Assembly (NCBI GenBank): GCA_965153455.1
Contig: OZ234493.1
Span: 2,666,001 to 2,730,000, forward strand
Source: Sphagnum compactum
Lineage: Eukaryota
Direction of reading: 5' to 3'
DNA length: 64,000 nucleotides
Positions 2,548 to 41,072 of the stretch are shown here, piece after piece. The notes under the pieces were generated by a model, which was given only the letters and a program-made list of their open reading frames with translations, was not told the DNA's origin and made no database searches. Positions within the stretch are counted from its first letter, which is position 1; each line of letters starts with the position of its first letter. The translations under genes were made by a program, and so were the position numbers.

Positions 2548-3458
2548 CCTTCCTACCAAGATTCCACCTGATCTACTACCCAATTTTGTTGTAGATCTAA
2601 TTAACACTCCCCTTCTAATAACATCTATGATGAGCTCAACAACCGTTTCCACTCCTGTGGTTGTTATACCTACATTAAGTGATTGAGTAATTCTTATTAT
2701 AACATGTTGTCTCCGGGTTTCAATAACTACCGCTTTTGACATTATTGGGGAAGCTGTGTTGACTCGAGATCGACGTCACTCCAGTCTGTCGTTACTCATC
2801 GGTATCCTCTATGGTCTTATTCTTGTTCTTATGGTTGATCTATTAATGCTCTTGCCACATTTTGTAACTCCACATGCCTAACAATATCTTCTTTGATGTG
2901 AAAAGGCACAAATGGACAATCCATGATTGCATGTCTTTCTTCTTCATAGAATCCATAAACCCTTGAAAGGAACCTGATCATCTCTGGATCCACAAACCTT
3001 TGAAAGTAACTTGATCATCTTCGAATCCACATATTCACATAGTAGTGACATACGCTCAATTCGATTCAAACATACGCGTATTATACGTTTTTTTGGGCTT
3101 TTAAAAAAATACGGCCCAAAATACGCAGAGTGGTAAAGGTTATGCAAAGAACCATTACCGGGCCACAAAAACTGCAGTCTGCTAGACTCTACAGTACTTA
3201 ACAACCTAGTTACATTTTCGCCGTCAAAATCGACGATTTCTGCAGCAACAAAATCACCTGTCGACGCCTGATATTCACGGTGCTCATTTCGGAACCCCGC
3301 CAAATATGGACGGTCTAGGATCAAAAGGTTTCGCGGATAAATCTTTTGATTGGCCATGACTCGGATGGCTCAGCCATGACACTAACAGCATTCGGAATCA
3401 GACTGTTGCAACTTGCAAGTCTGGATCTGATACTAAGTAATAATTTCAACTTTCTTTC

Positions 3459-5385
3459 ATGCTACAATCGAGCAGGGCGACCTTTGGAATGGGGAAGGAG
3501 AAAGGACCTGAGTGGACCGAGGTCACCATCCTCCAGGAACCTGAGAAAGCGGGGGGGAACTTTCAAGTCAAGTGTGGGCACTATGAGCTCGTGTTTTGGG
3601 GGGGTGCCACAAGAATCCGGGGCCACTTCTTGGGTCAGGTGGCTTGTGGAGTCAAGAAGTGCACCAAATGCCCCCAAGCCCTCAAAAAACAGCTTCAGGA
3701 TATTGATCAGGCGAAAAGAGAATAGGAAGGTGCAAGATCTGGATGAGGCTGCAGCTGCTCTCCCGCAAGGCCCCACCAAAAAGCAGAGCACTCTCAAAGC
3801 TGCCTTTGGAAAGCAAGATAAGTCTAAAGTAGATGCTCTGTGGGGTCGTGCCTTTTATGGCAATGGTCTTTCTTTCCGCTTGATCAATGACCCTCATTTC
3901 AAGGCAGCCGTTGAAGCTACCGCTGATTTTGGCGAGAACTACAAGTTGCCAAGTCTTGTATCTCTTCGTACCACCCTGTTAGACAAGGAAAAGGTATCGG
4001 TGGCAGCAGAACTCAAGTCATTTATGGCGTCAGCGCGGAGCAACAAGGCAACCATAACCAGTGATGGGTGGTCAGACACTCGGAATAGGCCTCTTCTCAA
4101 TCTTCTGATGGTCACACCCAAGGGTGAGAAGTTTCTTGAGAGTGTAGACACAAGTGGGGATACCAAGGATGCAGACTTCATTGCGCAGGTTGTTGGCAAG
4201 GCAATCGAGGATGTGGGGGCAGAGATTGTGGTCCAGGTGTGCATGGACAGTGCAGCAGTTTGTAAGGCTGTAGGTCGCAAGCTAGAAGCCCGCTTTCCCC
4301 ATATCACATTTACTCCTTGCACCCCGCACTGCCTAGATTTGTTGCTCGAGGACATGGGCAAGCTGGATTGGGTCTCCTCCGTCATAGCCGAGGCAAGAAC
4401 AGCGCTGAAGTTCATCACAAACCATCATAAGAGTCTAGCTCTCTTTAGGAGCCTGTCCAAGCTAGAGCTCTTGAAACCAGGGGAGACCAGATTTGCCACC
4501 AACTTCATCATGCTACAGCGCATGCATGAGGTGAAGGCATCACTGCAGCAGCTTGTGGTCAGCGACGCTTGGGGGGAGTGGAACCAGAAGTCGTCGCATG
4601 AGATGGAGGGAGAGGAGGTGCACGACATCCTGACTTCCGCTGCATTTTGGAAGGGTGTGAAGGAGTTGTTGGCTGTTTCAGAATCGATAGTCTGTTTTTT
4701 GCGCCATTGTGACAAGGGTGTTCCAGTTGTGGGAAAGGTTTACTATGCCATGTTTTTGATTGGCGAAGAGCTGGGGGCGCTCAAGGAAGGAACGAGCAAG
4801 CAGCATCCGGGGGTGAAGCTTTCTGCTGTCAAGTATGAGCAGATCAGCTGGCTTTGGCGCAAGCGCTGGGAATATTTGCATTCAGATATGCACTCGGCTG
4901 GGTTTGTTCTGGAGCCGGAGTTCCATCCAGCAGAATATGGACAGGACCAGAATGCGGAAGTGATGCAAGGGTTTTTGAACATCCTAGAGAAGCTCGTCTC
5001 AGATGCAGACGATCAAGCAAAAGCCCTGCAACAATTGGTGCAGTTTAGAAACCAAGAAGGTTTGTTTGGCAGACCCGGCATTCAAACGGCCATGAGAGCG
5101 ATGCCCGGGTGGAAATTTTGGCAACAGTGGGGTCAGCAAGTTCCAGAGCTTTAGACAGTAGGCGTGACGGTCCTCAGCCAATGTTCTGCAGCCTCAGCGT
5201 GCGAACGCAATTGGAGCACTTACGATTTCATCCATTCGAAAAAGCGAAACAGGTTGACCCCGCAAAGAGCTCAGGATCTAGTGCATGTCTTCTCGGACCT
5301 GCGCCTAGCACATAAAGTGAACAGCATTGAGTTTGAGGAAGAGATGGTTAGTTGGATGGAAGAAGAAGAGCCAAACGACGATTAG
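3459..5385 (+). pseudogene. hAT transposase pseudogene (BED finger, DUF659-type core, C-terminal dimerisation region)
   Basis: Near-identical to 29472-31412, but with CAG>TAG at 3723-3725, an adjacent 14-bp frameshifting deletion, CAG>TAG at 5152-5154 and a BED Cys>Tyr change (CGHY). Motifs TSDGWSD, CTPHCLDLLLED, TRFAT and CERNWS are present. Confidence 0.93.
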
Positions 5386-5600
5386 AGCGGGAACAAGAAG
5401 GGGACGCGATGCACTTCTATAAAAGGTGAGCTTACGTGATCATCGTTGTCTTTGTTCACTGTTTCGGAAGTAGGTGTAAAATTGTGTCAAATGTTTTTGA
5501 TCATCTTTGAAACCAATTGCAAGCTCGACAAGGACCAGACCCTAAAACTAGTGTGTAGTTTTATTCAAGGTATGCCTATGCTCAAGCTGGTTAAGAAGGG

Positions 5601-5842
5601 TTTGGGCACAACTTAAGCTCAGCTTGCTCAGCGTTTTGCTCATCGTATGTTACTGAGCTGATGTCTGCTCAAAATGGTCACAGATTTGGGCACAACTTCA
5701 GTTCAGCTTGCTCAGCGTTTTGTTAATCGTATGTTACTGAGCTGATGTCTGCTCAAGATGGTCACAGCTTTGGGCACAACTTAAGCTCAGCTTGCTCAGC
5801 GCTTTGCTCATCATATGTTACTGAGCTGGTGTCTGCTCAAAA
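5601..5842. repeat. Tandem repeat, ~3 x 84 bp, in the 3' part of hAT copy 1
   Basis: TTTGGGCACAACTT recurs at 5601, 5685 and 5769; each unit contains CTCAGCTTGCTCAGC...TTACTGAGCTG. Confidence 0.9.
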
Positions 5843-6824
5843 TACTTGAAAATACTTCTTTTTGAGCACCTTCGAAAAATACGGGTATTTCGTATGTCAC
5901 TACTATGCATATTCATGATCCTTTATTTCGGTAGTGTACCTTGGTTGTTCCAATTTTGGATTTCCTTGATGTGAATATGATTATAGTACTTCATTCAACG
6001 CATTCACTTGTGCCTTTGCATATTCAGATGATCTTGGGTAATTTTCCTCAGTTTTTTTAAACACATCAACATTGGTGTTTTCATCCACCTCCTAGTGTTC
6101 CATTGGTTCATAGTAATCTAGCAATGCAGATTGATACACAAACCTGGGTTGTATACTTCCTGTAACATCCTTCCTTCAGTTAGTCATTGATTTTGGACTT
6201 GAGACTTCTTACGGTTGATCAGGTACTATAAAAATTCATGTTCTGTTTTGATCTTTACAATTTGAACCGCAGATTGCAACTAAGAAGTATACTACATGTG
6301 CTCATTCGGATGAGTAATCGATTACATCTCTCTGTGTGGAGATTGTTGTATGGAATTATGCCTTCTCTAAAAACCCCTAGCCCATACGTTTCACCGTACC
6401 ACTTCTTGTGGTGGAATCAACTTGTGCTTCGTAGGCCTTTTTTTTGTTCTCAAAACTCGTCTATCTAACACCAGATTTTGAGATGGGGTTTCTGTAAGCC
6501 CTACATATTCCTCTCCATTTTCGAAATTATTTTTTGTTTATTTTTCAATAACTTACCAATTTGCCTCCAAGTCCAATTGTCACTGTAAATTCCGAGCCAC
6601 CATTCGATTCATCTTGTTTCATAATTTTTCGTCTTCAAAGTCTGTAGATCATTCTGTAGTCCTTATGGTGTCAACCTCGTAGACCTTTGATACTTTCTAA
6701 CATACCCTTTAAAATTCTAAATTAAAAAAACAACAATATTCGTCTGGACACTTTCATCTATAGAATACAACAAAATTTGTAGAAAACCTTCCTATTACTG
6801 AAAGAAAAAACAGAGAAAATTTTT

Positions 6825-21100: not shown

Positions 21101-21762
21101 AATCAACAAACATTTTATTGGACAATAACTATGGTGTCAAAGTGTCAGATTTCGGAATATCAAAATTGATCCCATTAGGTGCAACCCATGTTTCAACAAC
21201 AGCGCAAGGAACACCGGGCTACTGGGACCCTGAGTACTTCCTATCATACCAACTAACTGACAAAAGTGATGTTTATAGCTTTGGAGTCATTTTGTTAGAA
21301 TTGATAACCTCTCAACCTCCTATGAATTTCAATCATGATCAAAATGAAATGAGCTTAGTAGCCATGTGCGTTCCTCAAATCAAGGAGGGTAATTTAGAGG
21401 CAACTGTAGACCCCATGTTATCATCAGATTCTGAAGAAATGGAAACAACTTTACAAGAAATTGAAAAAGTTGCCATTATGGCAGTGCATTGTTTGGCATT
21501 CAAAGGAGACGATTGACCTTCCATGAAGCAAGTGACAAAGGTTTTACATCAAATCAAAGGATGCAATGGTCAATGGAGTGAAGGTAGAAGAAACATGTCA
21601 AGTGAATTTGGACTTGTTGGGGTTCATGAAATGAAACTAGTTCAAGAGTTGAAAATGCATCAATTAATAGATGCAAACACTCCAAACTCGAGTCAAAGTT
21701 CTAATGCATTGTCTACTTCTAATCACTCCAATAACTCTTCAAGCTTTTGTGTAAGGAAATAG
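18194..21762 (+). pseudogene. WAK: Wall-associated receptor kinase copy A (pseudogene); exons ~18194-19140, 19542-19680, 19838-20008, 20498-21762
   Basis: GUB_WAK-type CG..IPYPFG...GC, three EGF-like modules, TM segment and RD kinase (HRDVKSTN, DFG, GTPGYWDPEY); GT-AG borders. Lesions: +1 A near 18410, +1 A near 19635 (139-bp exon), CGA>TGA at 21514-21516. Confidence 0.9.
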
Positions 21763-23937: not shown

Positions 23938-26900
23938 CGCTAGTAGAAAACCCCCCTTTTTCAACCAAAAGTTTTCAACTACATGACATTTGCAACTATG
24001 TTTCAAGTAGATTTTTAAAAATTTTTAAAATAGAAATATGGCAATTACCAATTAAGTTGATTCGTTTACTATATTAGTATGTCGTTGAAAGCATTTTTCA
24101 ACTGTGTGGTCATTTGTCGAATATTCTTGGCATCTAAAGTTCTTTAATTGGCGCATAGTCAAGACATTGACTAATGTTCAACTATTTTGGATGATAAAAT
24201 GTACTAAAGGATGGATGAAATATAGTCTTGTTTGCAACTATCTCTTTCAACTAGGTTAAACAATTAATAGGCAATTTTAATTTTATACATGTAATATTAT
24301 AATATTTATTTAAAATCATGATAACATTAAACTACGTGTAAAATATTTTTTATAAATGAATGGTTTTTTTTGTGCATATAAATATTAAACTTTAATTTCA
24401 AAATAAAGTTTAATTTTTTAAAAAATGTTAGTACTAATGTTTATGTTCAATACACATGTAATTTATTATTTTTATGTAAATCATTACAACATATCAAGTA
24501 ATGATATATAATTAATAATATTGTGCGACTATAATGTTTATTCATTTTTATACACATGATATCTTAATATTTGTTTAAAATTATGATAAAAACTCATTAA
24601 ACATTAATGTACCCTATGTCACTAGCCCAAGTTTGAATGCATTCAACTGAATTTTCCTTCCAAATCCCTTTTTACAATTTGTTTGAATTTCCAACAACAA
24701 TACGTACCCACCAAAAATTCAATAATAATGTTCAAATTTTAGGTCTCAAAATTACGAAATCAACTTTATTAAATCGAACTTGGTGAGGGCTTTCAAACAA
24801 TACCAAGAACGCCCCCAAGTTCCAATATAGTTTTCAATTTTGGTCTTTCAAAAAATTCAATGAAAAAATGGTTCAATACTCAATAAATTCCACACTGTAG
24901 TTCCAAACATTTAAAACCAAGTCATTGCACCCTTATTCATTGAAAAGTTTTTGATGACAAGTTCCATAACATAACCTAAGACATTGTGGTTTGGGAAATA
25001 TCATTATGACAAAACAAAACAAACTACCTTCCTTCATGGATAAATAAGGTAACATGTGTTGTTGGCCCCAAATGTGAACACACTCAATTCATTTTCCCTT
25101 GTAAACCCAATTTGTTCTAATTTGTTTGAATTTTTAACAACAAAACTAATTCAAAATTCAATATCTTCCACACCTTAAATATGAAAATTATGAAATAAAT
25201 TTCATTAAATCTAACTTAGCGATTATTTTCCACTAAATACACCTTTGGATTCCAGTAAATTTTTTATTTTTGATGTTTATTAAGAAAATGGTTCAGTATT
25301 CAATAACCTTTGCGTTGTAACTACAAAACATTTCAACCCAAGTCAGCGCACCCCTATTCATTGTTAGGTTTTCAAAGATATCAATAGCATTATATGAAGT
25401 AATTTGGTTTAGGAAATATCAACAAGATAGAATAAAACAAAACAAATTATCTACCTTCATTAATAGATTAAATTATGTGTAAATTATCTTTGTATAAAAT
25501 GAATGGTTATGTATGATGCAAATATTTTTTGTGCACACAAATAATAAAATTTTATTGAAGGAAATTGAATGAAATTTTGAAATATAAATTTGTAATAATG
25601 TGCATGTTCAATACACCTAATTATTATTTATATGTAAATTGGATTTTAGTTTACAACATATCAAATAATGATACATAATTAATATTTTTTGTGGAAATTT
25701 AATGTTTATTAATCTTTATAGACATGATATCTCAATAGTTTCTTTAAATTGCAATAAAAATTCATTAAACATTAAATTACATGTAAATTCCATTTGTGGA
25801 AATGAATGCTTATGTATGATGCAATTTGTTTTTGTGCATATAAATATTAAAATTTAATTTCAAAATAAAATTTAAGCAAATTTTGAAATATGAATTTGTA
25901 ATAATGTAAGTTCAATATATGTAATTTATTATTTCTGTGTAAATCAAATGTTAATCTACAACAAATCAAGTAATGATACATAATTCATAACTTTTTGGAA
26001 CTTTAATGTTTATTCATTTTTATATGTGTGATGTCTTAATATATATTTTAAATTACAATAAAGATTCATTAATTATTAAGGTAAACAAATGTTTTTTGTA
26101 TCCATGAATGATTACATGTATGAAGAATTTTTTTGTGCATGTAAATATTACACTTTAATTTGAAAATAAAATTTAAAGAAATTCTGAAATATAAGTCAAC
26201 TTAATATGTGTATGTTCAATACATGCATAATTTATAATTTCTATGTAAATTCAATTTTAATTTTCAACATATCAAGTAAGGATATTTAGTGTGTAATTTA
26301 TTATTTCCATGTAGATTCAATTTTAATTTACAGCATATCATGTAATGATACATAATTAATAACTTTCAAAATTTTAATTTTAATTTTAATTTTTGCTATT
26401 AGTTCCAATAAGTTTTTCATCTATTAAATTTATTTATTTATTTATTTATGATTCAACTATAATAATTTTTAGAATAATTAGTAAATATATTTAATAAATT
26501 ATCATGTAATTTCAAATATTATTTTATTTAACACTATGATACTATAATTTTTTTTTTCATATTTAATATTTATTATACTAAGTCATTTAATAGTTCCAAC
26601 AAGTTAGATAAAAATATGAAAAAAAATAGTTAAATAACTAGCCTAACCTAATTACTAGTTACAATATTATTAATATTAATATTATAATTGTAGTCAATTA
26701 TTAATTATCACAACATTATAATGATTATTGTAACTAAAATATCATATAAAATCTATTATTGAATAATATATTTGAGTTAATTCTTTGTTTTATTAAATGT
26801 TAAAAAGAATTTATAATGAATTTTGAACTAAAAAATTCAGTGATAATTAATTACTTAATAAATAAATACATTTAATTTTCTGATTTTTCAAAAAAAAACT

Positions 26901-28559
26901 AATAACCATATTATTTAATAAATGATGATAATATGTTTAATTGTTTAATTATACAACTATATAGTTAAAAATAGTTGATGAATAATTACTTCAAGTAATT
27001 AAGGTAAGTAGCTAGACCTAGGCTAGATAGATTATTAGTTTAGGTCTAGGCCTAATTAAGTTTAGACTAGCTTGTACAATTAGATTACAACTATTTGAGT
27101 TGCAATTAAGTTGTAACTAGGTTGCAACTAGGGTAGACATCAAATGGTACTCTATCATCAAACATTTTGAAGTTTCCCTTCATTTTAACACCAAATTGAA
27201 CATTTTTTATGTCATTGGAAGCACAAAACAGAAAGTTACAAATGATCTTAGAACCTCAAAAGCAAAAGAACAAAATAGAGAATGCAAAAAAAGAAAGATT
27301 GATATTTTGTTTCAAATTTTGTCTCTAGACCCCCTTTATTTCTAGTAACTATATCTTGTTCATTTCTCATTCATTCTGAACGATTTTAAAAGATACAAAT
27401 GCGCTATCTCAAAATCTATAAGACTTGTTGAAAGTGAAAAATAAAAAAAACAATAATTGAAAAGTTGAAGCTTCAAAATCATTCTGAACACTTATGAAAA
27501 AATCCAAAGCACAACCCCCTTCACTTTGAAATGACATATCTTACTCATTTTCAATTAGATTACAACGTTTTTTACATATTTGGATACGCCAAGTGGAGGA
27601 TTACAAAATTGTTTTAAATTTCAAAAGGAACAGACCATGGACAAGAGAGTTATAATGATCCAATATCGTTAAGTGTTTGGTGATAGGTGTGTTTTCCCTA
27701 GGTTACAACTAAAACTTTTATCCCATATTGTTTCATTTCCATTCCATGAATCCAAACTATATAAAGGAATGCACTAGGATTATTGGAGAACACAATAAAC
27801 ATGAAAATCTAATAGCCATTTGGGATGAGCCAATAAAACAGGTTCAACCTTAAAAGTTAAACCAAATGAAATAGGACTTCATTTATTAATTGCCATGTGG
27901 TTTAGGTCTAGGCCTAACATAGGTGCCTAAATCTAGCCCTACTTTAAGCCTAGATTAAATGGCCTATGTTTAAGTTTAACCTATGTGCTTAAGTTTAGAG
28001 CTAACATATTCTTAGGCACCAAGTGCCTAAACTTTTGATGTAGATGTGCCATGTGTCATTTAACTATGCGTTGACCCCACATTTTATGAATGTGCCACAT
28101 GTTAACATTGTTAGTGTGCCACGTGTCACCAAACCACTGGCCAAATGTTCAATTTACATAGCTGCAACATAGTCAAAATGTTCAATTTACATAATTGCAA
28201 CCTAGTTGAAAGTGTAATTATATTTTTAGTTGATGTCATGCTTAGTTAGCAGATGAAGTTCATCCATTAGTTGAATGCAATTGACAACATCCCTCGACTA
28301 TATTGGTAGAACAATTTTCAACTAAATTGGTAAAAAGTGGCACATAGTGGCTATTGTTGTGGTGTTGACATGTGGCATACACTTTCCACTATAATTTCAC
28401 TCTTGACTTGTACTTTTCAACATTATTGGTTAGTAATTGCAAAAAATATTTCCTAGTTGTAAGAAATAAATTGCAACTATATGTGTAGTTTTCGACTTGA
28501 TTTATAGTTGAATAGTAGTTGAAAACATAGTTGCAAAAGGGGGGTGTTTTTTACTAGTG
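23938..28559. mobile_element. Non-autonomous CACTA-type element, 4.6 kb
   Basis: Left end CGCTAGTAGAAAACCCCCCTTTT; right end reverse-complements to CACTAGTAAAAAACACCCCCCTTTT; 3-bp TSD AAA/AAA; TTGCAACTA/TAGTTG subterminal repeats. Removing it rejoins the host frame (ATG CTC AAA ATC GTT AAA ACG). Confidence 0.82.
24326..26370. repeat. AT-rich ~300-bp tandem units inside the CACTA element, interrupted by a duplicated ~440-bp block
   Basis: Unit starts near 24326, 25468, 25771 and 26075. AATTTGTTTGAATTT..AACAACAA occurs at ~24676 and ~25120. Confidence 0.7.
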
Positions 28560-29471
28560 AAATCGTTAAAACGCCCTAGATATCTCTCATGGGTCCTCTA
28601 AGGAACATTTTGTTAAAATTCAAACCAATTCTGGCCAAGATTTCTATGGATAGCAACAACAACAAGCTGCGAAGGTAACTTTTTGCCTTAAACTTCTATA
28701 TGTTTCTTGCATTGTATGTTATTTGTTGTAATGTTTTTGCATTTTCTAATTGATGGTTTGGTTGCATTTGCAAACTAATTTGACCTTACTACATGTTGGG
28801 AATGTGTTACATCATACTTTTGTTGGAAAACATTGATTCTCTTGTGCAATTTACATAGTAGGATGATGTTTTCATATGTGATTTGGTGACTATAGTAAAA
28901 GTTTGCCAGGGTAGCTCTATTTTTGATACAATAATGGCAGTTCTTCATTTTCTAGTGATGAATTTTGGGCATTTAAAGGTTTGTTGGATTAAAGCCATGA
29001 CCACATCCACATGAAGTGGGTGGCAGAATTGAATGACTCTAGTGAACATTGTGCCTTCATTGTGAATGATGATAAACTTTGGGCCATCCACAATGATCCA
29101 ATATTGAATGTTAGGATAGTTGTGACTAAGGATTCTTTTCAAAGTCTAATTTCACAAGTGCAGTCAAAGTGTTCATGTCAGTTTCTAACCTTATTTTCTT
29201 TTTGATTCATCTTGATGTGTTTTGACTTAAGGGTTTTGTTTTCTTTGAAACATAAATTTTAGTTTGGGACTTTGTTTTCTTTCAATCTATGTTGCAACTT
29301 TCCTTTTTTAATATGTCTTTGTTGGTTTGTGGGTGCATCTCATAGTAGTGACATACGAAATACGCGTATTTTTCAAAGGTGCTCAAAAATAAGTATTTTC
29401 AAGTATTTTAAAATTTGAAAATGTGAATACATGAAATACGTGAATACGATGAGCAAAATGCTGTTCCCGCT

Positions 29472-31412
29472 CTAATCGTCGTTTGGCTCTTCTTCTTCCA
29501 TCCAACTAACCATCTCTTCCTCAAACTCAATGCTGTTCACTTTATGTGCTAGGCGCAGGTCCGAGAAGACATGCACTAGATCCTGAGCTCTTTGCGAGGT
29601 CAACCTATTTCGCTTTTTCGAATGGATGAAATCGTAAGTGCTGCAGTTGCGTTCGCACGCTGAGGCTGCAGAACATTGGCTGAGGACCGTCACGCCTACT
29701 GTCTGAAGCTTTGGAACTTGCTGACCCCACTGCTGCCAAAATTTCCACCCGGGCATCGCTCTCATGGCCGTTTGAATGTCGGGTCTGCCAAACAAACCTT
29801 CCTGGTTTCTAAACTGCGCCAATTGCTGCAGGACTTTTGCTTGATCGTCTACATTTGGGACGAGCTTCTCTAGGATGTTCAAAAACCCTTGCATCACTTC
29901 CGCATTCTGGTCCTGTCCATATTCTGCTGACTGGAACTCCGACTCCAGAACAAACCCAGCCGAGTGCATATCTGAATGCAAGTATTCCCAGCACTTGCGC
30001 CAAAGCCAGCTGATCTGCTCATACTTGACAGCAGAAAGCTTCACCCCCGGATGCTGCTCGCTGGTTCCCTCCTTGAGCGCCCCCAGCTCCTCACCAATCA
30101 AGAACATGGCATAGTAAACCTTTCCCACAACTGGAACACCCTTGTCACACTGGCGCAAAAGGCAGACTATCGATTCTGAAACAGCCAACAACTCCTTCAC
30201 ACCCTTCCAAAACGCAGCGGAAGTCAGGATGTCGTGCACCTCCTCTCCCTCCATCTCATGTGACGACTTCTGGTTCCACTCCCCCCAAGCGTCGCTGACC
30301 ACAAGCTGCTGCAGTGATGCCTTCACCTCATGCATGCGCTGTAGCATGATGAAGTTGGTGGCAAATCTGGTCTCCCCTGGTTTCAAGAGCTCTAGCTTGG
30401 ACAGGCTCCTAAAGAGAGCTAGACTCTTATGATGGTTTGTGATGAACTTCAGCGCTGTTCTTGCCTTGGCTATGACGGAGGAGACCCAATCCAGCTTGCC
30501 CATGTCCTCGAGCAACAGATCTAGGCAGTGCGGGGTGCAAGGAGTAAATGTGATATGGGGAAAGTGGACCTCTAGCTTGCGACCTGCAGCCTTGCAAACT
30601 GCTGCACTGTCCATGCACACCTGGACCACAATCTCTACCCCCACATCCTCGATTGCCTTGCCAACAACCTGCGCAATGAAGTCTGCATCCTTGGTATCCC
30701 CACTTGTGTCTACACTCTCAAGAAACTTCTCGCCCTTGGGTGTGACCATCAGAAGATTGAGAAGAGGCCTATTCTGAGTGTCTGACCACCCATCGCTGGT
30801 TATGGTTGCCTTGCTGCTCCGCGCTGACGCCATAAATGATTTGAGTTCTACTGCCACTGATACCTTTTCCTTGTCTAGCAGGGTGGTACGAAGAGATATA
30901 AGACTCGGCAACTTGTAGTTCTCGCCAAAATCAGCAGTAGCTTCAACGGCTGCCTTGAAATGAGGGTCATTGATCAGGCGGAAAGAAAGACCATTGCCAT
31001 AAAAGGCACGACCCCACAGAGCATCTACTTTAGACTTATCTTGCTTTCCAAAGGCAACTTTGAGAATGCTCTGCTTTTTGGTGGGGCCTTGCGGGAGAGC
31101 AGCTACAGCCTCATCCAGATCTTGCACCTTCCGTTTTTGCGTTTCCTGTTCTCTTTTCGCCTGATCAATATCTTGAAGCTGTTTTTTGAGGGCTTGGGGG
31201 CATTTGGTGCACTTCTTGACTCCACAAGCCACCTGACCCAAGAAGTGGCCCCGGATTCTTGTGGCACCCCCCCAAAACACGAGCTGACAGTGCCCACACT
31301 TGACTTGAAAGTTCCCCCCCGCTTTCTTAGGTTCCTGGAGGATGGTGACCTCGGTCCACTCGGGTCCTTTCTCCTTCCCCATTCCAAAGGTCGCCCTGCT
31401 CAATTGTAGCAT
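29472..31412 (-). CDS. hAT transposase, uninterrupted 646-aa ORF (real start may be the second Met, MGKEKG)
   Basis: BED finger (W...VKCGHC...RIRGHF...C); DDE candidates TSDGWSD, CMDSAA and CERN; CxxH (CTPHC); C-terminal dimerisation region; no stops. ERNWS is changed to ERNCS. Confidence 0.92.
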   Translation of the reverse strand: MLQLSRATFGMGKEKGPEWTEVTILQEPKKAGGNFQVKCGHCQLVFWGGATRIRGHFLGQVACGVKKCTKCPQALKKQLQDIDQAKREQETQKRKVQDLDEAVAALPQGPTKKQSILKVAFGKQDKSKVDALWGRAFYGNGLSFRLINDPHFKAAVEATADFGENYKLPSLISLRTTLLDKEKVSVAVELKSFMASARSSKATITSDGWSDTQNRPLLNLLMVTPKGEKFLESVDTSGDTKDADFIAQVVGKAIEDVGVEIVVQVCMDSAAVCKAAGRKLEVHFPHITFTPCTPHCLDLLLEDMGKLDWVSSVIAKARTALKFITNHHKSLALFRSLSKLELLKPGETRFATNFIMLQRMHEVKASLQQLVVSDAWGEWNQKSSHEMEGEEVHDILTSAAFWKGVKELLAVSESIVCLLRQCDKGVPVVGKVYYAMFLIGEELGALKEGTSEQHPGVKLSAVKYEQISWLWRKCWEYLHSDMHSAGFVLESEFQSAEYGQDQNAEVMQGFLNILEKLVPNVDDQAKVLQQLAQFRNQEGLFGRPDIQTAMRAMPGWKFWQQWGQQVPKLQTVGVTVLSQCSAASACERNCSTYDFIHSKKRNRLTSQRAQDLVHVFSDLRLAHKVNSIEFEEEMVSWMEEEEPNDD

Positions 31413-31634
31413 GAAAGAAAGTTGAAGTTATTACTTAGTATCAGATCCAGACTTGCAAGTTGCAACAGTCTGATTCCGAATGCTGTCAGTGTCATGGCTG
31501 AGCCATCCGAGTCATGGCCAATCAAAAGATGGCCAATCTTTCTTAAGAGACTCTGATTAGTGCCAAAGAGAATGTCTTATCAGGAGGGGAAGGAGAGAGA
31601 GACAGAGATAGAGAGTGACAGAGAGCAGGAAGAA

Positions 31635-34500
31635 TCAAACTAGCTCTTCTTCCAAGAGGGTATGCTTTAGTGCTTCATAGCACATGAAGGAGAGACCTGC
31701 TGCTGGCATGAGCTTAAGGCAACTGGGGCCTAAACCTCTATACAAACCCTTCAAGCCTCGCTCTTTTGCAATTCCCCTAAGTGCATTTAATGTGCCTTTA
31801 TACACTACCCTCCCCTTCAATGCCCCTACCTGCACAAAAGAATCAAACCCCAAAGTTTCAGCATAATGTCTCTTAGGTGGAAGGTGATAACCCCAAATTG
31901 TTTTCTAGTTTTCCAACCTGAGCAGTTCTCTGTTCTTTGCACCTTCCAGAAGGTCCTATAAAAGACTCATCCACTCCTTGGCTTGTTTTCTCTCTAGGGA
32001 ACAGATGTTCAAAGGACATGACTTCCTGTTTGAGTTTCAATTTTGAGGTACTAACCCATACAGATCACATTTTCAGAGCTTTGCTTTGATCCCCAAAACT
32101 GTTCCATGAATTTTGCTTGGTTGTAATAAACAAGCTAGGCCTTGAATCGAAGCACCATCCATGAAACAAATCACGCTAGAAACAAGGTTCATTCAAACAT
32201 ACACATGTGGAAAGGGATTAGGGTTCTAAGGTTGATGAAGCAATACATGTTCACAGGGTGGATATGGATGACTCCAAAATGCTTGAGATCTTAGGTTATA
32301 AAAAATCTTTGATGAAATTGATGTGACACACATGATTTGTTGAGGCTGTAGTAGAGTCTAATTGTGGAAGATGGGGTCAGTGTAGAGATCTTGACCTGCA
32401 TGTGCTTGCGCGCCACTTCTAGAGGAAATGTGCTCGTGCTGGCTATTGCTCCAGCAAGCGAGCCAATCAGCAATGTCTGTATGTTCCCAACCCTGTCTGT
32501 CTTACTGCATCTCTTGTAAAGAGAACGTAATGAACCATACACAAAATAGTTGACACCAGCATACGGGGTCACCCCAATGACACTTGGAGCAAGGCCTCGA
32601 TAAAGCTCCAAAACACCTTCTTCAGATACTATCCTCCAAAGAGCATGCAAAATGCCTCGATACTCATCAGGCTGATTGATCACAAAACCAAAAGAGATTT
32701 CAGTTCAATTTCCTTCCATGAGAAATTGTGTTTGTTGAACCCTTTAAGACTTCTTCAAGCAACATGTTTTTCTCTTTCTGCTTTTGCCTATGTTGTTCAG
32801 ATCTAAGGGTTCCATGTTTGAGGGTAACAATTCAGCACACCAATGCTGTTGAGATTTCATTGCTATATTTTATGTGTTCTAGGGATTCCATGTATAAGGT
32901 CATGGGCATCACTGAATCCCTGATGTTCTTTTGAGAGATTTAAACTTTGGGCAAGTTTTCAAACCAGCAAGTTGGAAACACTATGAATTGGAAAATACCT
33001 ACCTGAATTGTGAGGCGAGTTTTGAGAAGCTCAAGTGGGTACATACACACAGTTGATGAAATGCCCGCACAGGAGCCTGCAATTGGTGATACTGGCAGAA
33101 ATGCAAGCTTGCCTGGTGTCCCGTCCTTTGGACTCAGGTATGCCTTCACAAAATCATATGCAAAGAGCTGCAAAGAACATATTAAGGCACAATCTCCCAT
33201 CAGAAGCTCCACTTTTGTTCAAGAGAAAAGAAAACAAACAGAGGTACAATCTCCAATCAGAAACTCAACTTTTGTTCAGAAGAAAAACACAAACAGATCC
33301 AGTTAGGGTTAGGAAGCTCAACTTTTGTTCAGAAGGAAAACAAACAAACAGATCCAGATAGCTTTTGCCTGCCCAAATTAGGTCAACTAGAAATGAGAAG
33401 CCACCCCCAGTGAATCTTCATTGAGGGGAGTCAGTTTTTCATTGCCTGATTATGGTGATCTAGCATGCGGGATCACACAAGATCACACATGTTATGTGGC
33501 AAAACAAGATTCAACAAGACTGAAAAATGTGGAATACACTTCCAAAAATACCGAAGATTACTGATAGGTACATACCTTGCTCTTCTGTTTTGGAACCAGA
33601 CTTCCACTTGCCGAGGTCGCAAGTTTAGTTGCTTTGCCAAGGCGCTCTTTTGCTTCTGCAGAGGGGAGCCAGCCACACAGATATCATCAGAAATAAGCAG
33701 CAGAAGAAACGGTACAGAACCGACAATGACCTAAAGGAAAAACTCTGGACAAGAATCATGAGAGCGGCAGCAGAAGAGAGTCGGACATCCTTGTTCATAC
33801 CGGGTTAAGAGTGCTATGATCTTTGAAGCTTTCTTCTAGGAGAGCTGATTGTTCTTTGGAGAGACGAAGCTTCTTCCTCGTGGTTCCTCCTCCTCCCTCG
33901 TCTTCATCATCGCTACAACCTCTGGAGCTCAGATCGCACGCTCTTTCCCGATCCAGCAGCTGTTCGAACAACTGATCGTGCTGCTGAAGATGCCAACAGC
34001 AAAGGAGTTGAAAAACTACAAAGGAAGAAAAACTCTGCCAGATCTGAAGCTCACCCAAGAAAAAAATTTGTGAAAAACGTGAAGAAATGCGGTTTGCAAT
34101 CTCGAGCTTGCTTGCTTGCTTTGATCGTGGGTGAATACTTGTTTGAAGCTTTTCACTGGGGAATAGAAGTAATGAGAGAGAGAGAGAGAGAGTAACAATA
34201 ACACTAACCTCGATGGCTTTGCTGGGGGCGACGCGAATGACATTGATGGCGTTGCCACGGAAAAGCCCAGGCCATCCTTCGTTGGTGATGATCCAGTGAA
34301 AGATTTCAGGGAGCGAATGGCCATGGCTGCCAACCATCAAATGCGTGCGGATGGTCTCGACTCTCCAATGGTGCCATTGCAATTCTTGAGAAAGCTCCAG
34401 CTATGGCTCTGCTCAGTAACCTTCTGCCGTTGGGCCCTAGTTTCAGCTTGAAGCTCGATTTTCTTCTTCTCTCTTGTGCAGCTTGTTCTCTCTCACCCAT
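31635..34500 (-). pseudogene. BT1: Captured mitochondrial-carrier-family gene, BRITTLE1-type adenine nucleotide transporter; exons 34500-34209, 33167-33003, 32671-32396, 31829-31635
   Basis: Three carrier signatures ([32 protein letters not shown]) plus [25 protein letters not shown] and LGPSCLKLMPAAGLSFMCYE. Phase-0 GT-AG introns. A 7-bp insertion near 34356-34362 frameshifts exon 1. Confidence 0.9.
33576..33983 (-). pseudogene. Captured HD-Zip class II homeobox fragment, two exons (~33983-33801 and 33655-33576)
   Basis: [38 protein letters not shown], then a GT..AG intron, then the 80-bp exon [27 protein letters not shown] followed by GTATGT. No leucine-zipper/CPSCE exon follows. Confidence 0.93.
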
Positions 34501-37500
34501 TGCTATTGTGTCTTCAGAGTCCTGTTCTGAATCGTCGATTTTGGCGGCGAAAATGTAACTAGGTTGTTAACTACTGTAGAGTCTAGCAGACTGCAGTTTT
34601 TGCGGCCCGGTAACGGTTCTTTGCATAACCTTTATCACTCTGCGTATTTTGGGCCGTATTTTTGAAAAAAAACAAAAAAAACGTATAATACGCGTATGTT
34701 TGAATCGAATTGAGCGTATGTCACTACTATGGTGCATCTGCCTTGCTTTCAATGTGTGTTGCTGTTTGTAACATTTTTTTTTTTCAATTTTTTTTGTTAG
34801 TTTACAGTTGCATCTACCCAACTAATCAAAGAGTTGGACAACCGCTTCCCCTAGCGTGCCTTGCTCAATGCCATGGGCATTGTATGTCCACAGTACTAGT
34901 TGCAGCCCAATTATGATGATAGTTTTACCAAGCATTTGGAAGTATGAAAGTTTGGTACTGTGATCCAAAACTCTTGGGGTTTGGAGGTTCAAGTTCATTG
35001 GTTGCACCATTGCTTGATTGTTGGGGGCTAGATGCGCATAGCAAGGGATGTTCAAATTGTGTATGGAAAACAATTTTAAGGCTGCCATGGAACCACCTTT
35101 TGATTTGAATCCATTGATTCGAATTTGGAAGACAATTGATGCATCTTAAGTTTTCATGCATTCTAGAGTATTTTAAGTTGGTAAAAATGGCCATAGTCCA
35201 TGTTAAAGGGAGTGTAGAAAATGAGAGATGTTTTTCATTTCTTGCATGTCGTAAGAACAAGTTGCGAGTACTTTAGATCCTCACCTTCCTCTTGTTGTTA
35301 GCATGTATAACCAAAAGTTTTTTTTTACTTTAAAAAGTTTTTTTGTACATTGCCACATTTGATGCTTGGATTAGAGCAATTGATCGTTACAGTATTCTTG
35401 CGTAAATGACATTTTGTTCTAACATTTCTAGAAATGCATAGTTCTTGCCTTCCATACTTTTATGACTTTGTTCACCCTGGCAATAGCTTCATGTTCTTTG
35501 TTGGCCTAGGCCTTTTGTTTCTAGCATCTTAGTATGTTTAGTGAACCATTTGAAGATATGGAAATTTGTGGTCTTGGTTTGAAACTTTATTTTCAATGAG
35601 AGTTTTTTTCAATGAACATTGTTTGATAAGTAGTTTGCTTCTCACTCACAAGGCAATGGAGCCAACAACATCACATCCTAAATCTAGACAGTAGCCTTAA
35701 GTCTATATTAAAATGTTGATTGTCGCCATTATTGGCATGTTTCGAATTCCCTTTGATAGCCATTACCTTTCATTTGCAACATACAAATTATTGCCAATAT
35801 CTTGCATTTTTCAGCATATGCGCGCCACCTCCTTTAAATAATATTAAAAAAGTATTGCCACTTGGATTGTGGAATCCAGGGCTCCTGAAGTGATGTGGGC
35901 ACTTTATGAAAAACCAAGAAAAAAAAGGGCTGGAAGAGAGTACTCTAAGTTCCATCAAAGAAAGAAAGACCCGTGGGACTTGAATCATGGTGTGGTTGTG
36001 AGAGACTTATTCCACTTTGCATAGTTGTGGTATTCTTCTCTATCCTAGAAAGACCATAAGGCCCATGAGAATGCTTGTTTTTTCTTATGTATTCCTTTTC
36101 ATTCTTTTAATGATTGTTGAAGCACCAGCTAAGTACCATCAATGATGAATACTACCCATTGCCCACAAAATGAGTCTATGAAGAAGATGATGGCACCATT
36201 TGACCACCATTGGGAAAATAAATCAATTGACAAAATAGTTTGATTGGTGGTCTGTCGTGAAGATGGTCCCATGGGACCACCATTTTGAGGATTGTAACCT
36301 ATTTGGGTGCATTATTCTCACGCACTTTTTCAGGCTTTTTCCTAAGTAGGACAGGTAGTCAGTCATCTACTGGTTCCATTTTTGGAAGAGTCGGTTTTAC
36401 TCGGAATGTGAATTCTTAGAGAACAATGTTGTGCCATCATTTGAATTTTTAAAGTATAGGGTAAGTCCCCTGCTGTTAAGGATTTACGTGGCATAACAAA
36501 CCGAGGTGATCAATGCCTTCCAAAATAATTCCCTCCTTCACAGTGATCTGACTGGGTCACATCTTTCACCATAGGGATCTTATAAAATTATGCTATTTGC
36601 CCTAAGGAACATTTCGTAAGCCTAAATTCAAAAAATAATTCACCCTCCAGAGAAAGATTTAGCCAAATTTGACTACAAGCTAAATATGGAAGTAAAACTT
36701 GTAAATATCCTTTTTTTTTTTTTCCCCTACCTACTTGAACCATTTATAGAAATCTGGTGATTTTTCTTCTTTTTTTTTCGAATGCTGGCTATTAAAAATC
36801 TCAAAAGAACTTGATTTCAGCACTTTTTATTTTTAATATAACTGTTTCGCTATTATATATGGCCAAGAAAAAAGAGGCAGGTGCTGATTGTTTTGCCTGA
36901 CATGACATGGAAGGCCCCAACATTATATGTGCACATAGTGATGACGATGATGATGATGATGAAACCCTGCCAAACTTTATAAAAAGAAAGCACCCAAGAA
37001 GGGGGGAGAAAAACAAACAAGGGGCAAGGACAAAAGTCCAGGCAAGCAAACAGCCCAACAAAGGTGGGCCACAAGGAGGAAAGGGCACCACTAAGAATAG
37101 TTGTTATTGCAAGAGTACAAAAGTCTCACCTGCTTCTTTTTTATTCCTGACATGATTTCCTTTCTTGGCAGGGTTTTAGTATTATACCGTAGCCTAGGGT
37201 CAATTTCCACATTGAGAAAACAAATAATTATTATTTTTCCAAAAAAGATTTTAAATTTTTTTTGAAATTATATTATTTTCCATCATCTGCTATAATAATA
37301 TTGTGATATGAGTAGTGAAATTATTCAGAGTGTAGCCTCCGATAATAATTATGATGATTTTCAACATGTCAACTTCATATTTTCACAAGATTTCATTTCA
37401 CTATTTTGAGAATTATATAATGACGAAACTGACCTTAGGGTAAGGTAGGCACATATAATGTTTGGGAGAAACAAGGGGCCCTTTGCTGGCCTTTATGTAC

Positions 37501-37855
37501 TATGTCAGGTGTAGTAGGTTCATCAAGTGATAAGAAGAGGTTTGAGCAGGGCCTGTTCCAGCATGACCAGTATTTGCACCAATGATTCACATCACAGTAG
37601 TGTTCCCTGGACCCTCTAAGATAATAAGTTGGGGGTGCTTATTCATACTTCTAAACCCTAAACAATTTTCAAGTTGTACCCGTAATCATGTTAATCGGAA
37701 TTTTTTATATTAGTTTGATTTATTCAGTTGCCCGAGCTCTCTGCTCAAGTCTCAGCTCGCTGCTTTGGCGAGATGATCTTCGCAATGCATCTAGTTACAC
37801 TCCTGTATATGGTCATTCTTTGATTGGGTTGGCAACAGTTTTGGATTGGTGACAT

Positions 37856-40800
37856 ATGTTTATCACATCAGCGATGGCTTGCAGTCCAGGTGTAGATATG
37901 GTAGCGTTTGGTAGTGGTCTGAGGTACATAAGTTTTGGGCACACGAGAGCACTTGGGTATGCATCTAACGTGTTTGTCGTGTTCTTGGTTGTGAGTTCTC
38001 TGCCTGCAGTGCTCACAAGAAGTCTTCAAGGCTGCTTATCACAGTGTGGGAACGTCGCAATCCCGTATCCATTTGGCACCAGTCCGGGATGTGGCCTGCC
38101 GGAGTTTTCTTTGAATTGCAGCAGCGATGGATGGTGGGCAAATGCGGTGCTGCTGCTTGCGCCCCCCTGTGGTCGCTCTGGCAACTTTATCCAGGTCACA
38201 AGCATCTCAGCCAACACACTCATCATCAGCGCGATTCGCCTTGTAACTTTCTCCTGTGACCCAACCCTTGGTTCCGGAAATGCAACGAGCGCTTGTCTCG
38301 GTCCAGCTTCAGCGCCTTATGTTTTTACACCGCAGAATAATTTATTTGCAGGGGGTTGCGGCGCATGGGGCGAGTTATATGGTGACGATGAATTTGTTGG
38401 CCGGTGCTCGACTCAAGGATGTAATAGTACCGGTCAAAATGAAATAACCGACTGTACCACACCACAATTTCCCAAAGGTGTGCGCAACATCACGATTTAT
38501 GGAGGAGGCAACTGTGGATGGGCCAGCGTGATCTACCCGCCTACTTATGACGGGGGAGTATGGGGAGCTCAGTTGGGATGGGCCATTCCTGGACCGAGTT
38601 GCCAAAACGCGACAACGCTGCCTAACTATTCTTGCGCTGCGATGGCAACCTGCCAGGATGCTCAATTCCCAGGTCTGAGCGGGTACACATGTGCGTGCAA
38701 TGCTGGTTACGATGGGGATGGATACGCGAACGGAATCGGATGTCACGGTAAGCATGACCTCAAGAGCTCGTGCTATTAATGTCCTACTTAGAATTTCATG
38801 CTTTTCGTTTTGGCCATGTCTAGGAGACCATTATTCGACACCTTGCAAATCAAGATTCTATTCAGGGCGTAGAAGGGATGAGCAAACATCTGATAGTTTT
38901 GTGTGAAGATTACCTGAAGTGATGGCCGAAACAAGAACGACACATGTTTCAAACAAATTGTCTTGGTCTTCTTTGCAGTCCTCATTTATTGCTCTCCATC
39001 GACCAATGTGTGCAATTCTTAGCTCGGTCTTGCTTATATGCAATAGTTCGTGCAAGTCTGAGAACTAGCTAGATTGTTAATCAACGTTGTCAAGTCAGCA
39101 GTTCAATAAGTTATCATGCTGGTGTCATGGTGACTCGGACTTGGACATCCCATTCAGTAAACTTTGCCTGAAAGATGTGGTCAACACACAAGTTTGTATA
39201 AAGTGATCTACTGACAAACAAATTTTTTTTTCTTGCAACTGCAGAAATCAACAAATGCTTGAACTCCACATTGAATAATTGTTCTCCAAATGCAATTTGT
39301 ACCAACACGACTGGAGGTTACTATTGTAATTGCACCAACGGATTCTCTGGTGATGGCTCTCATGATGGGACAGGATGTCAATCTATCAGGAAACATAACC
39401 TTTTACTAGTTGCAGGTATTTCACAATGCTACCTGCCATCTAAACAATTGTATAATTTCTAATGTGCAATACCCTTCAAGGTTTTCAACATTTATTGTCA
39501 TTTGATGACTAAGGGGCTATATATACAATCTTTGGATGCAAGAGTGCAAACATTGAAAGACAATTGTCAACTTTGAGAGTTTGACTAAGCTCTAGTTCCA
39601 TCCAAATGAGACAATTACAGTCCTTCCACAATGGATCAAAGTACATACCCAAACATGATTGTTGAGATCATTAACATCGTTTATCAAGTATGAACCATGA
39701 CTAATAGATATTTGTTGCAAAGTTGATCAATACTAGAACCAATTTTGTAATCAATCGTTGTAGTCTTGACTTTGAGGTTTCATTGTGAATCATGATCTTC
39801 TCTAATGTTAATTGTTGTCAATAACCAAAAGATTGTTGTTATGTAATTGTTGTAATGGGTTGCAACTAAAGATAATTGAAATGCATTTTGATCCTAGGAC
39901 TATCGGCAACAACAGCTATACTTGTGGGGCTCGGAGGTGTTCTATTGGCCTTGTTGTGTTGTATCAAAAGAACAAGGAAACATAAGCAATTTGCTCGAAG
40001 AAATTTTGAAGCCTTGGGGAAGCTTCAAGATTTTTTCACCTCATTGACCGATGGTGAATCGAATACAACAACGTTGTTTTCTTTGAAAGAGTTAGAAAAA
40101 GCAACAAATGGATTTTCCGATGACCAAAAGCTTGGTGTTGGAGGATTTGGCACAGTTTATAAAGGCACAATGGAAAGTGGATTGATTGTGGCAGTGAAAA
40201 GGACAAATAAACTAGACACAAGTGGTGCACAACAATTTCTAAATGAAGTGGCCTTGTTATCTCAGGTCAATCATCGTAACCTTGTCCGTCTTCATGGATG
40301 CTGCTTGGAGACAGAAGTACCAATGCTTGTGTATGAATATGTCCCAAATGGAAACCTTAGTGAACATTTACGAGGTGAAAACTCTAGTGAACTTGGACAG
40401 TTGACTTGGCCCAAACGCATGCAAATTGCGATTGAAACTGCAGAGGCCATTACTTACCTCCATTCAGAAGCAAATCCGCCCATATATCATAGGGATGTGA
40501 AATCAGCCAACATATTATTAAACAATAAGTATGGTGTTAAAGTATCAGATTTTGGAATCTCAAAGTTGATCCCATTAGATGCAACCCATGTTTCAACAAT
40601 AGCACAAGGGACACCAGGCTATTGGGACCCTGAGTATTTCCTATCATACCAGTTAACTCACAAAAGTGATGTTTATAGCTTTGGAGTCATTTTGTTGGAA
40701 TTGATAACCTCTCAACCTCCTGTGGACCTCAATCGTGACAAAATGGAAATGAGCCTAGTAGCCATGTGCATTCCTCAAATCAAGGAAGGTAATTTTGAGG

Positions 40801-41072
40801 CAATTGTAGACCCTAAGTTATTATCATCAAATTTTGAAGAAATGGAAACAACTCTACAAGAAATTGAGAAAGTTGCCACTATGGCGATGCATTGTTTGGC
40901 GTTCAAAGGAGATGATCGACCTTCCATGAAACAAGTGACAAAGGTTTTACATCAAATCAAAGGTGATTGTCGATGGAATGAAGGCAAAGGAAACCTTTCA
41001 AGTGAGTTTGGACTTGTTGGGGTCCATGAAATGGAATTGGTTCAATTAATTGATGCAAATATTGCAAATTAA
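37856..41072 (+). CDS. WAK: Wall-associated receptor kinase copy B, apparently intact, ~745 aa; exons 37856-38747, 39245-39415, 39898-41072
   Basis: Exons total 2238 nt in frame with phase-1 GT-AG introns. Hydrophobic signal region, CGNVAIPYPFG, two EGF-like modules, TM segment and a complete RD kinase (GVGGFGTVYKG, VAVK, HRDVKSAN, DFG). The start Met is uncertain. Confidence 0.9.

Follow-up and report, generated by a model that had tools for sequence, protein, structure and literature searches.

How cut-and-paste transposons pick up pieces of genes is still argued, with gap repair, template switching at replication forks and hybrid elements all under discussion, and to our knowledge the intermediate states of capture are usually missing. 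Pack-MULEs carrying fragments of more than one locus are known. In the hAT superfamily, capture of intron-bearing gene fragments has been documented in maize and is called rare for the superfamily (PMC3260210). Pack-hAT elements have been catalogued in maize as well (Gisby & Catoni 2022, PMC8903248), in a paper that defines Pack-TYPE elements as non-autonomous. For animal terminal inverted repeat (TIR) elements with captured host DNA, mostly hAT elements, one study reports a median breakpoint microhomology of 2 bp and discusses gap-filling and fork- or template-switching models (PMC8277862). A model of tandem insertion followed by aberrant excision has been proposed for Pack-CACTA elements (PMC6379663), and a fungal study describes hAT-mediated transduplication of a housekeeping gene (PMC6710886). 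Here we describe a 64,000-nt stretch of peat-moss (Sphagnum) nuclear DNA from contig OZ234493.1 (hereafter, the window) in which a hAT element, copy B, carries a BT1-type mitochondrial-carrier gene that in turn carries, in its first intron, a piece of an HD-Zip II homeobox gene. We conclude, with a probability of roughly 0.85, that the element acquired the BT1 DNA first and the HD-Zip II piece later, as two serial acquisitions.

According to the maize papers (PMC3260210, PMC8903248), the maize hAT captures and Pack-hAT elements resemble copy B in having hAT TIRs, 8-bp target-site duplications (TSDs), intron-bearing fragments from elsewhere and filler acquired at the DNA level. The maize cases are described there as short and non-autonomous, whereas copy B has a transposase frame of 651 codons, its host is a moss, and three loading states are found together with their junctions. 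Pack-MULE, Pack-CACTA and other Pack-TYPE elements are likewise TIR elements in which fragments of host genes are taken up and multiplied, but Pack-MULEs and Pack-CACTA elements belong to other superfamilies than copy B, and the tandem-insertion model (PMC6379663) misfits an insertion deep in the intron of an earlier cargo. As in Pack-TYPE elements, TIRs and a TSD enclose fragments whose donors lie elsewhere, but the transposase frame of copy B is uninterrupted. In the way it works, copy B thus resembles a Pack element, but the definition in PMC8903248 does not cover it. The fungal case (PMC6710886) is alike in that a hAT element amplifies a captured host gene, in another kingdom and with another gene. 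The Pack-TIR FoSTeST models and the filler DNA at plant double-strand breaks (DSBs) share with the nested piece short microhomology, lack of a TSD, small deletions and a contiguous ectopic copy, and the locally templated 7-nt filler at the 3' cargo junction is a further hint in that direction; here the mechanism is read from junctions only. This case is a hAT transduplication with serial acquisition, a kind already known. Among the papers that our literature searches listed, none linked Sphagnum with transposon gene capture or described this element, which is weak evidence of non-publication.

The window contains two copies of the element (Table 1). Both have perfect 17-bp TIRs, short as in other hAT elements, and both are flanked by exact 8-bp repeats as expected of a hAT TSD (AGATGCAC at copy B and CATATTCA at copy A). 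The open frame of copy B matched PF04937 (DUF659, E 5.9e-43) and PF05699 (Dimer_Tnp_hAT, E 1.7e-4; 21.7 bits, barely over the cut-off of 21.4) in Pfam, and the transposase frame is degraded in copy A. The copies form an inverted, related pair that is collinear except in two places, with three aligned blocks that are 94.6-96.3% identical. At the first of these places 102 nt in copy A (3239-3340) are replaced by 2,999 nt in copy B (34529-31531), and this extra DNA consists of the BT1 gene and the homeobox piece nested in it. The cargo thus occupies the 5' leader, with the 5' subterminal region on one side and the transposase gene on the other, and has the same orientation as the transposase. At the second place, near the 3' end, about 440 nt in copy A (5396-5838, including 84-nt tandem repeats) face 52 nt in copy B (29461-29410). 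Copy A lies 23.4 kb from copy B, and three 84-nt tandem repeats (5601-5852) replace part of its 3' region. The same hAT terminus, with 0-2 changes, was found at five further sites in metagenome contigs. Copies are therefore present at seven different flanks, two in the window and five in contigs, suggesting that the element is mobile.

Table 1. Coordinates of the hAT copies and of the two nested cargoes in the window
Feature	Position	Strand	Remarks
hAT copy A, without cargo, 2,870 bp	3038..5907	+	TIRs as in copy B; own 8-bp TSD CATATTCA
hAT copy B, 5,391 bp	29341..34731	-	perfect 17-bp TIRs and 8-bp TSD
TIRs of copy B (perfect, 17 bp)	34731-34715 and 29357-29341		
8-bp TSD of copy B, AGATGCAC	34739-34732 and 29340-29333		minus-strand reading
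hAT 5' terminal and subterminal region	34530..34731	-	94.6% identical to 3038-3238 of copy A, which has no cargo
First cargo, genomic copy of BT1-type mitochondrial-carrier gene, 2,992 bp	31538..34529	-	all three introns kept
BT1 exon 1 remnant	34209..34529	-	ATG at 34500; 7-nt insertion at about 34361-34355
BT1 intron 1, 5' part	33987..34208	-	donor-derived, with (CT)n run
Nested second cargo, 624 bp of HD-Zip II gene	33362..33985	-	in BT1 intron 1
HD-Zip II partial exon	33801..33986	-	up to ...STLNP, first half of homeodomain
HD-Zip II intron, 145 nt	33656..33800	-	GT-AG; homologous to donor intron retained in P0132
HD-Zip II exon	33576..33655	-	second half of homeodomain, 27 residues
First ~two thirds of the donor's next intron (intron 3)	33362..33575	-	homology to read-through protein P0232 ends at 33359-33362
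BT1 intron 1, 3' part	33168..33361	-	~60-nt tandem repeats
BT1 exon 2	33003..33167	-	RNA joint 32671 to 33003
BT1 exon 3	32396..32671	-	
BT1 exon 4	31635..31829	-	stop codon 31637-31635, then 97 nt of donor 3' UTR (31634-31538)
Filler ATTGGCC, 7 nt, at 3' cargo junction	31531..31537	-	repeats a motif 10 nt further on in the element
hAT transposase open reading frame of copy B, 651 codons	29472..31427	-	DUF659 and hAT dimerisation; co-oriented with cargo

The BT1 cargo runs from the middle of the first coding exon of its donor to the donor 3' untranslated region (UTR) and is thus truncated at its 5' end. Its readable exons (34500-34209, 33167-33003, 32671-32396 and 31829-31635, minus strand) all gave Pfam Mito_carr matches. 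Exon 1 extends to 34209 and is followed by the splice donor GT (34208-34207), exon 2 begins at 33167 after an AG at 33169-33168, and these two exons are joined exactly in two intronless, cDNA-like contigs (L001, L002). This is not an intact carrier gene, with about 220 N-terminal donor codons missing and a 7-nt insertion in exon 1 that shifts the frame within the PLETIRTHL carrier motif. The best matches of exon 3 were all Sphagnum proteins at 85-97% identity, with BT1 from seed plants next at about 63-70%.

We scanned the full-length Sphagnum BT1 protein P0005 against metagenome contigs and obtained 56 loci. The 15 with at least 80% identity were analysed and the other 41 (at most 76%), which represent other carriers or organisms, were left out. 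Three of the 15 contain only the N-terminal part of the exon and have no overlap with the cargo in the window, two are the intronless cDNA-like contigs, four are genomic and donor-type (L003-L006), and six are hAT elements with BT1 cargo. The donor-type contigs carry the roughly 220 N-terminal codons that are missing from the element, contain no hAT sequence, and are 91-99% identical by segment to positions 34530-31538 of the window. Over this stretch with its introns, identity to the window is 93-97%. Their introns are in place in the cargo, demonstrating a capture at the DNA level that started in mid-exon. BT1 homology begins at about residue 221 of P0005, precisely where homology to copy A ends, and one T at this 5' junction is common to element and donor. 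On the 3' side, gene models from two other species (P0003, P0012) contain more of the donor 3' UTR followed by the 102-nt segment of copy A. Thus, the 3' cargo junction of copy B is probably a later deletion and not the original capture junction. Tandem repeats of about 60 nt (33361-33185, minus strand) lie just upstream of the exon 2 acceptor, and their number varies among loci, with three units in the window and L003 and four in L004, L005 and L006. These repeats are native to the donor intron and no by-product of the nested insertion.

The second cargo was examined with the Sphagnum HD-Zip II protein P0133. By tblastn, residues 108-170 matched 33989-33801 (98.4% identity, E 5.5e-37) and residues 171-197 matched 33655-33575 (100%, E 8e-12). 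Residues 1-107 and 198-296, including the leucine zipper and the C-terminus, had no tblastn match within the 64 kb. A Pfam Homeodomain match (E 1.4e-10) fell on the open reading frame at 33476-33730. In HD-Zip II proteins the homeodomain is directly followed by a leucine zipper (HALZ); this is not the case here, and the piece is a fragment of a gene. Splicing of the homeobox intron was seen in RNA runs as a joint from 33655 to 33801 in 47 polyA reads and four metatranscriptome contigs, and the reads most likely come from the donor gene. One donor protein, P0132, retains the intron between the two homeobox exons, and its translation matches the intron in the window.

Both ends of the piece could be placed on the donor. 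The donor proteins P0130, P0132 and P0133 run on through the apparent acceptor AG before the first homeobox exon. On the left, a metatranscriptome contig fits the window up to 33986 and then continues with upstream codons of the donor, so this breakpoint lies in mid-exon. On the right, a search for a donor form that retains intron 3 gave nine matches, one of which was useful (P0232), a read-through of the second homeobox exon, the whole of intron 3 and the zipper exon. P0232 and the window agree over 106 residues, as far as 33359, beyond which they part. This puts the right breakpoint some two thirds of the way along intron 3, and the zipper exon was left out of the copy. PolyA reads ending at 33575-33576 run on into the zipper exon and are transcripts of the donor gene. 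P0133 and P0232 extend past both breakpoints. The nested piece is one contiguous copy of the donor, from mid-exon to the middle of intron 3.

These results agree with most of what the initial annotation, made from the sequence alone, had described. It had reported two homeobox exons with their own GT-AG intron on the same strand between BT1 exons 1 and 2, as tblastn, Pfam and the splice joint now find them. The BT1 splice donor (34208) and acceptor (33168) it gave are those used in L001 and L002, the leucine-zipper exon is absent as stated, and the exon layout it assumed for HD-Zip II genes is that of the donor polyA reads. The upstream homeobox exon had been taken for a whole exon, which has to be corrected, as donor homology starts in mid-exon at 33986/33985 and the preceding AG is fortuitous. 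A true exon start at the AG before 33980 was considered and rejected because the donor proteins read straight through it. A chimeric gene model (P0007/P0264) and the HD-Zip II donor (P0133) appear to be on contigs of equal size (18.8 Mb) in two named Sphagnum assemblies, with protein accession numbers that differ by 150-290. The HD-Zip II donor may be linked to an element copy.

The order of the two acquisitions was read from which copies have the piece and which lack it. All four genomic BT1 contigs of the donor type skip from 33986 to 33361, without the homeobox piece and with the 9 nt that are lost in the window. Five of the six hAT-BT1 contigs (L015, L016, L019, L020, L022) make the same jump and keep the 9 nt; they represent four insertion sites, L015 and L016 sharing a flank. 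The remaining contig, L014, is from another site and has the identical insertion with identical junctions. Across the 625 nt from 33986 to 33362 it shares 96.5% identity with the window, a value similar to that for the remainder of L014. Both states are also found among read-through proteins in the database, with the piece present in P0121, P0122, P0123 and P0125, and the upstream part of the intron passing directly to the downstream part in P0124. Substitutions that distinguish the element copies from the donors are common to those that have the piece and those that lack it. In a maximum-likelihood tree from 889 shared columns the four donors grouped together (support 100/99), apart from all six element rows. 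The shared substitutions and parsimony argue for a single capture of BT1. The copies without the piece have in common a 35-nt deletion over the 5' hAT/BT1 junction and a stop at codon 9; they are a sister lineage of the doubly loaded copies and not their direct ancestor.

Divergence from the donors was not decisive for the order of events. The BT1 cargo is 91-99% identical to its donors by segment, and the HD-Zip II piece is compared with proteins only, from differing species, at 98-100% on the exons and 85% amino-acid identity through the intron read-through. Independent metagenome contigs contain the nested arrangement, as do public runs of two other organisms and the gene models of three named Sphagnum species. 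Thus, it is real and not an assembly artefact. In run X5 the k-mer depth was about 180-230 on the cargo and about 40 on a single-copy-like contig, a hint at several cargo copies in each genome, although such a depth is no copy number.

We next considered what the cargo does. It is most likely non-functional passenger DNA. It could instead be an exon-shuffled gene that encodes a homeodomain fusion without a zipper, or whose BT1 part is a working carrier. The splice donor of BT1 exon 1 has the same phase as the fortuitous AG that precedes the homeobox piece, the Sphagnum jensenii gene model P0127 is an in-frame fusion of BT1 exon 1 and the homeodomain, and in the window a frame is open from BT1 exon 1 through the homeobox exon (34400-33798). 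Homeodomain-derived exons are also included in the models P0262, P0007 and P0264 (S. fallax, S. jensenii and S. troendelagicum). However, these three models read exon 1 and the homeodomain-derived exons in non-native frames, keeping BT1 exons 2-4 open, and the junction of the second homeobox exon with BT1 exon 2 is out of frame for a homeodomain reading. Exon 1 in the window has the 7-nt frameshift, and the stop at codon 9 is common to all four sites without the piece. Cargo exons and introns have diverged from the donor to a similar degree (93-99% versus 91-97% identity).

The polyA reads of one species also speak against a functional gene, as they hardly cover the element-specific parts. In polyA run X24 (one species, 12% of the run) depth was 0-0.8 over the introns and over the portion of the insertion outside exons. 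Reads on the exons were mostly less than 90% alike and continued into donor exons, indicating that they come from the donor genes. No joint from 34209 to the homeobox piece or to exon 2 was listed for X24, but one joint was dropped at the (CT)n run (34165-34209), so this is not evidence of absence. One X15 metatranscriptome contig (33957-34238) spans the left junction; since that run also has coverage on introns, DNA carry-over is possible. Taken with the disrupted frames, we regard a functional gene as very unlikely. The 7-nt insertion in exon 1 is present in a high-depth X5 contig and absent from L014, from part of the X11 contigs, from the sole X15 contig covering the place and from seven of the eight polyA reads there. 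This insertion (34361-34355) is a possible marker of a sub-lineage of copies.

Slightly less credible still is a history with one capture only, in which an allele or paralogue of the BT1 donor already contained the homeobox piece and the copies that now lack it lost it later. In its favour, there are only four genomic donor contigs, all metagenomic, and the 35-nt deletion in every copy without the piece leaves the 5' junction not directly comparable. Yet none of these donor contigs has the piece, and a loss would have to restore the 9 nt of the donor exactly. It would also have to keep an element-specific G 8 nt to the left of the site and an element-specific T about 100 nt to its right, so only a very short conversion tract could explain it. 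Element-specific changes common to copies with and without the piece are a further argument against such a loss. The initial annotation had proposed a second capture at the DNA level into the first cargo and had named a parental BT1 intron 1 with the homeobox piece as the observation that would speak for one capture. The parental intron lacks the piece in four of four genomic contigs, as do four element sites, and both cargoes keep donor introns. The proposal of a second capture is therefore upheld.

The junctions of the nested piece suggest how it arrived. On the left, a C at 33986 fits both donor and target, an overlap of 1 nt. On the right the overlap is 2-3 nt, as CT (33361-33360) and perhaps one base more agree with both partners. 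Nine nt of the target intron were lost, and there is no TIR, TSD or poly(A) around the piece (33985-33362), as the initial annotation had noted for TIRs and TSDs. Lack of a TSD, a small deletion, microhomology and a contiguous ectopic template are features of templated filler DNA at repaired DSBs, the donor nucleotides at the right junction being deduced from protein. From the very short overlaps, the 9-nt loss, the contiguous ectopic copy and the locally templated 7-nt filler elsewhere in the element, we infer that the piece arose by templated DSB repair with a switch to an ectopic template. The template switch that had been suggested earlier fits the same overlaps, loss and lack of a TSD. 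Delivery of the piece into the captured intron by a different mobile element (Pack-type TIR element, Helitron or retrocopy) is the least likely explanation that we considered, since, although nested transposons are common and the window holds other transposon-like open reading frames, the piece has none of the marks of such an insertion, its target lost 9 nt and gained no duplication, donor introns are kept, which a retrocopy would lack, and colinearity with the donor from the first to the last base leaves no sequence for a carrier.

For cut-and-paste elements, interrupted gap repair after excision is the usual proposal. The scar would look the same after a stalled replication fork or an unrelated break. 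L014 has a 137-nt tandem duplication across the 5' hAT/BT1 junction (about 305-700 of that contig; compare the X15 joint 34561/34427), which is another sign of error-prone repair in the leader region.

The history that we favour, two serial acquisitions, begins with an ancestral element of the copy A type that took about 2.4 kb of genomic BT1 DNA into its 5' leader, co-oriented with the transposase. The resulting hAT-BT1 element transposed and diversified, the simplest course being one BT1 capture and then a split of the lineage. The 35-nt deletion arose in one branch, the HD-Zip II piece was gained by the other, and transposition went on in each. In the second branch a break within the captured BT1 intron 1 was probably mended with a 624-bp copy from an HD-Zip II gene, primed by the 1-nt overlap on one side and the 2-3 nt on the other, with loss of the 9 nt of intron. 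The likeliest routes would be synthesis-dependent gap repair after excision, or repair of another DSB or stalled fork, with an ectopic template switch in either case. The doubly loaded element then transposed again, at least to its site in the window and to that of L014. Of this history, the sequences show the structure of the element, its two donors, the empty and filled states, the junctions and the insertions at several sites, whereas the repair mechanism is deduced from them.

Several points weigh against this history. The tree did not separate the element rows from one another (support 40/82), and the copies with the piece are grouped by their shared insertion and not by substitutions. 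The 35-nt deletion precludes a direct comparison of the 5' junction between the two lineages. The donor-type contigs are metagenomic and possibly from other Sphagnum species than the window. The HD-Zip II donor is known as proteins, as the end of an RNA contig (left overlap) and as a translation (right overlap), not as gene nucleotides. Mobility is deduced from copies at different sites and was not observed, and there is no evidence that the transposase caused the break.

Other features of the window lie around the two copies. Copy B is located between two tandem paralogues of a wall-associated-kinase-like receptor kinase gene (18288-21516 and 37853-41072, plus strand), which are about 19.5 kb apart and 82-96% identical at the DNA level. 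Adjoining long open frames of 429 and 305 codons at 10820-13027 (plus strand) have no Pfam match, and starting cysteine/histidine motifs suggest another transposase-like gene. Two adjoining open frames at 49278-50203 (minus strand) match DUF7869 (E 4e-36 and 2e-6) and are probably a disrupted gene that belonged to a further mobile element. Repeats at 7974-9100, 45409-46129 and 60413-60825 comprise an AT-rich satellite whose period is 15 nt (TTAACCATGGTT-like) and two arrays with units of 36 nt to about 210 nt, and the region 24000-28000 has only 24% G+C.

The cargo is co-oriented with the transposase and keeps its splice sites, which could allow fusion transcripts or small RNAs. It is conceivable, if improbable, that pieces of host genes land repeatedly in the 5' leader of this transposase-bearing hAT family, that the element's transcripts contain BT1-homeodomain fusion frames or yield small RNAs, and that these RNAs or a homeodomain product without a zipper could interfere with the HD-Zip II donor; if so, a passenger would have become a regulator found throughout several Sphagnum species. 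The gene models for these transposon-borne chimeras are annotated as carrier proteins in three named Sphagnum species, and this needs correction. For the question of how transposons come to carry host genes, one hAT family offers empty, singly loaded and doubly loaded states, with junctions at base level and both donors, in a bryophyte.

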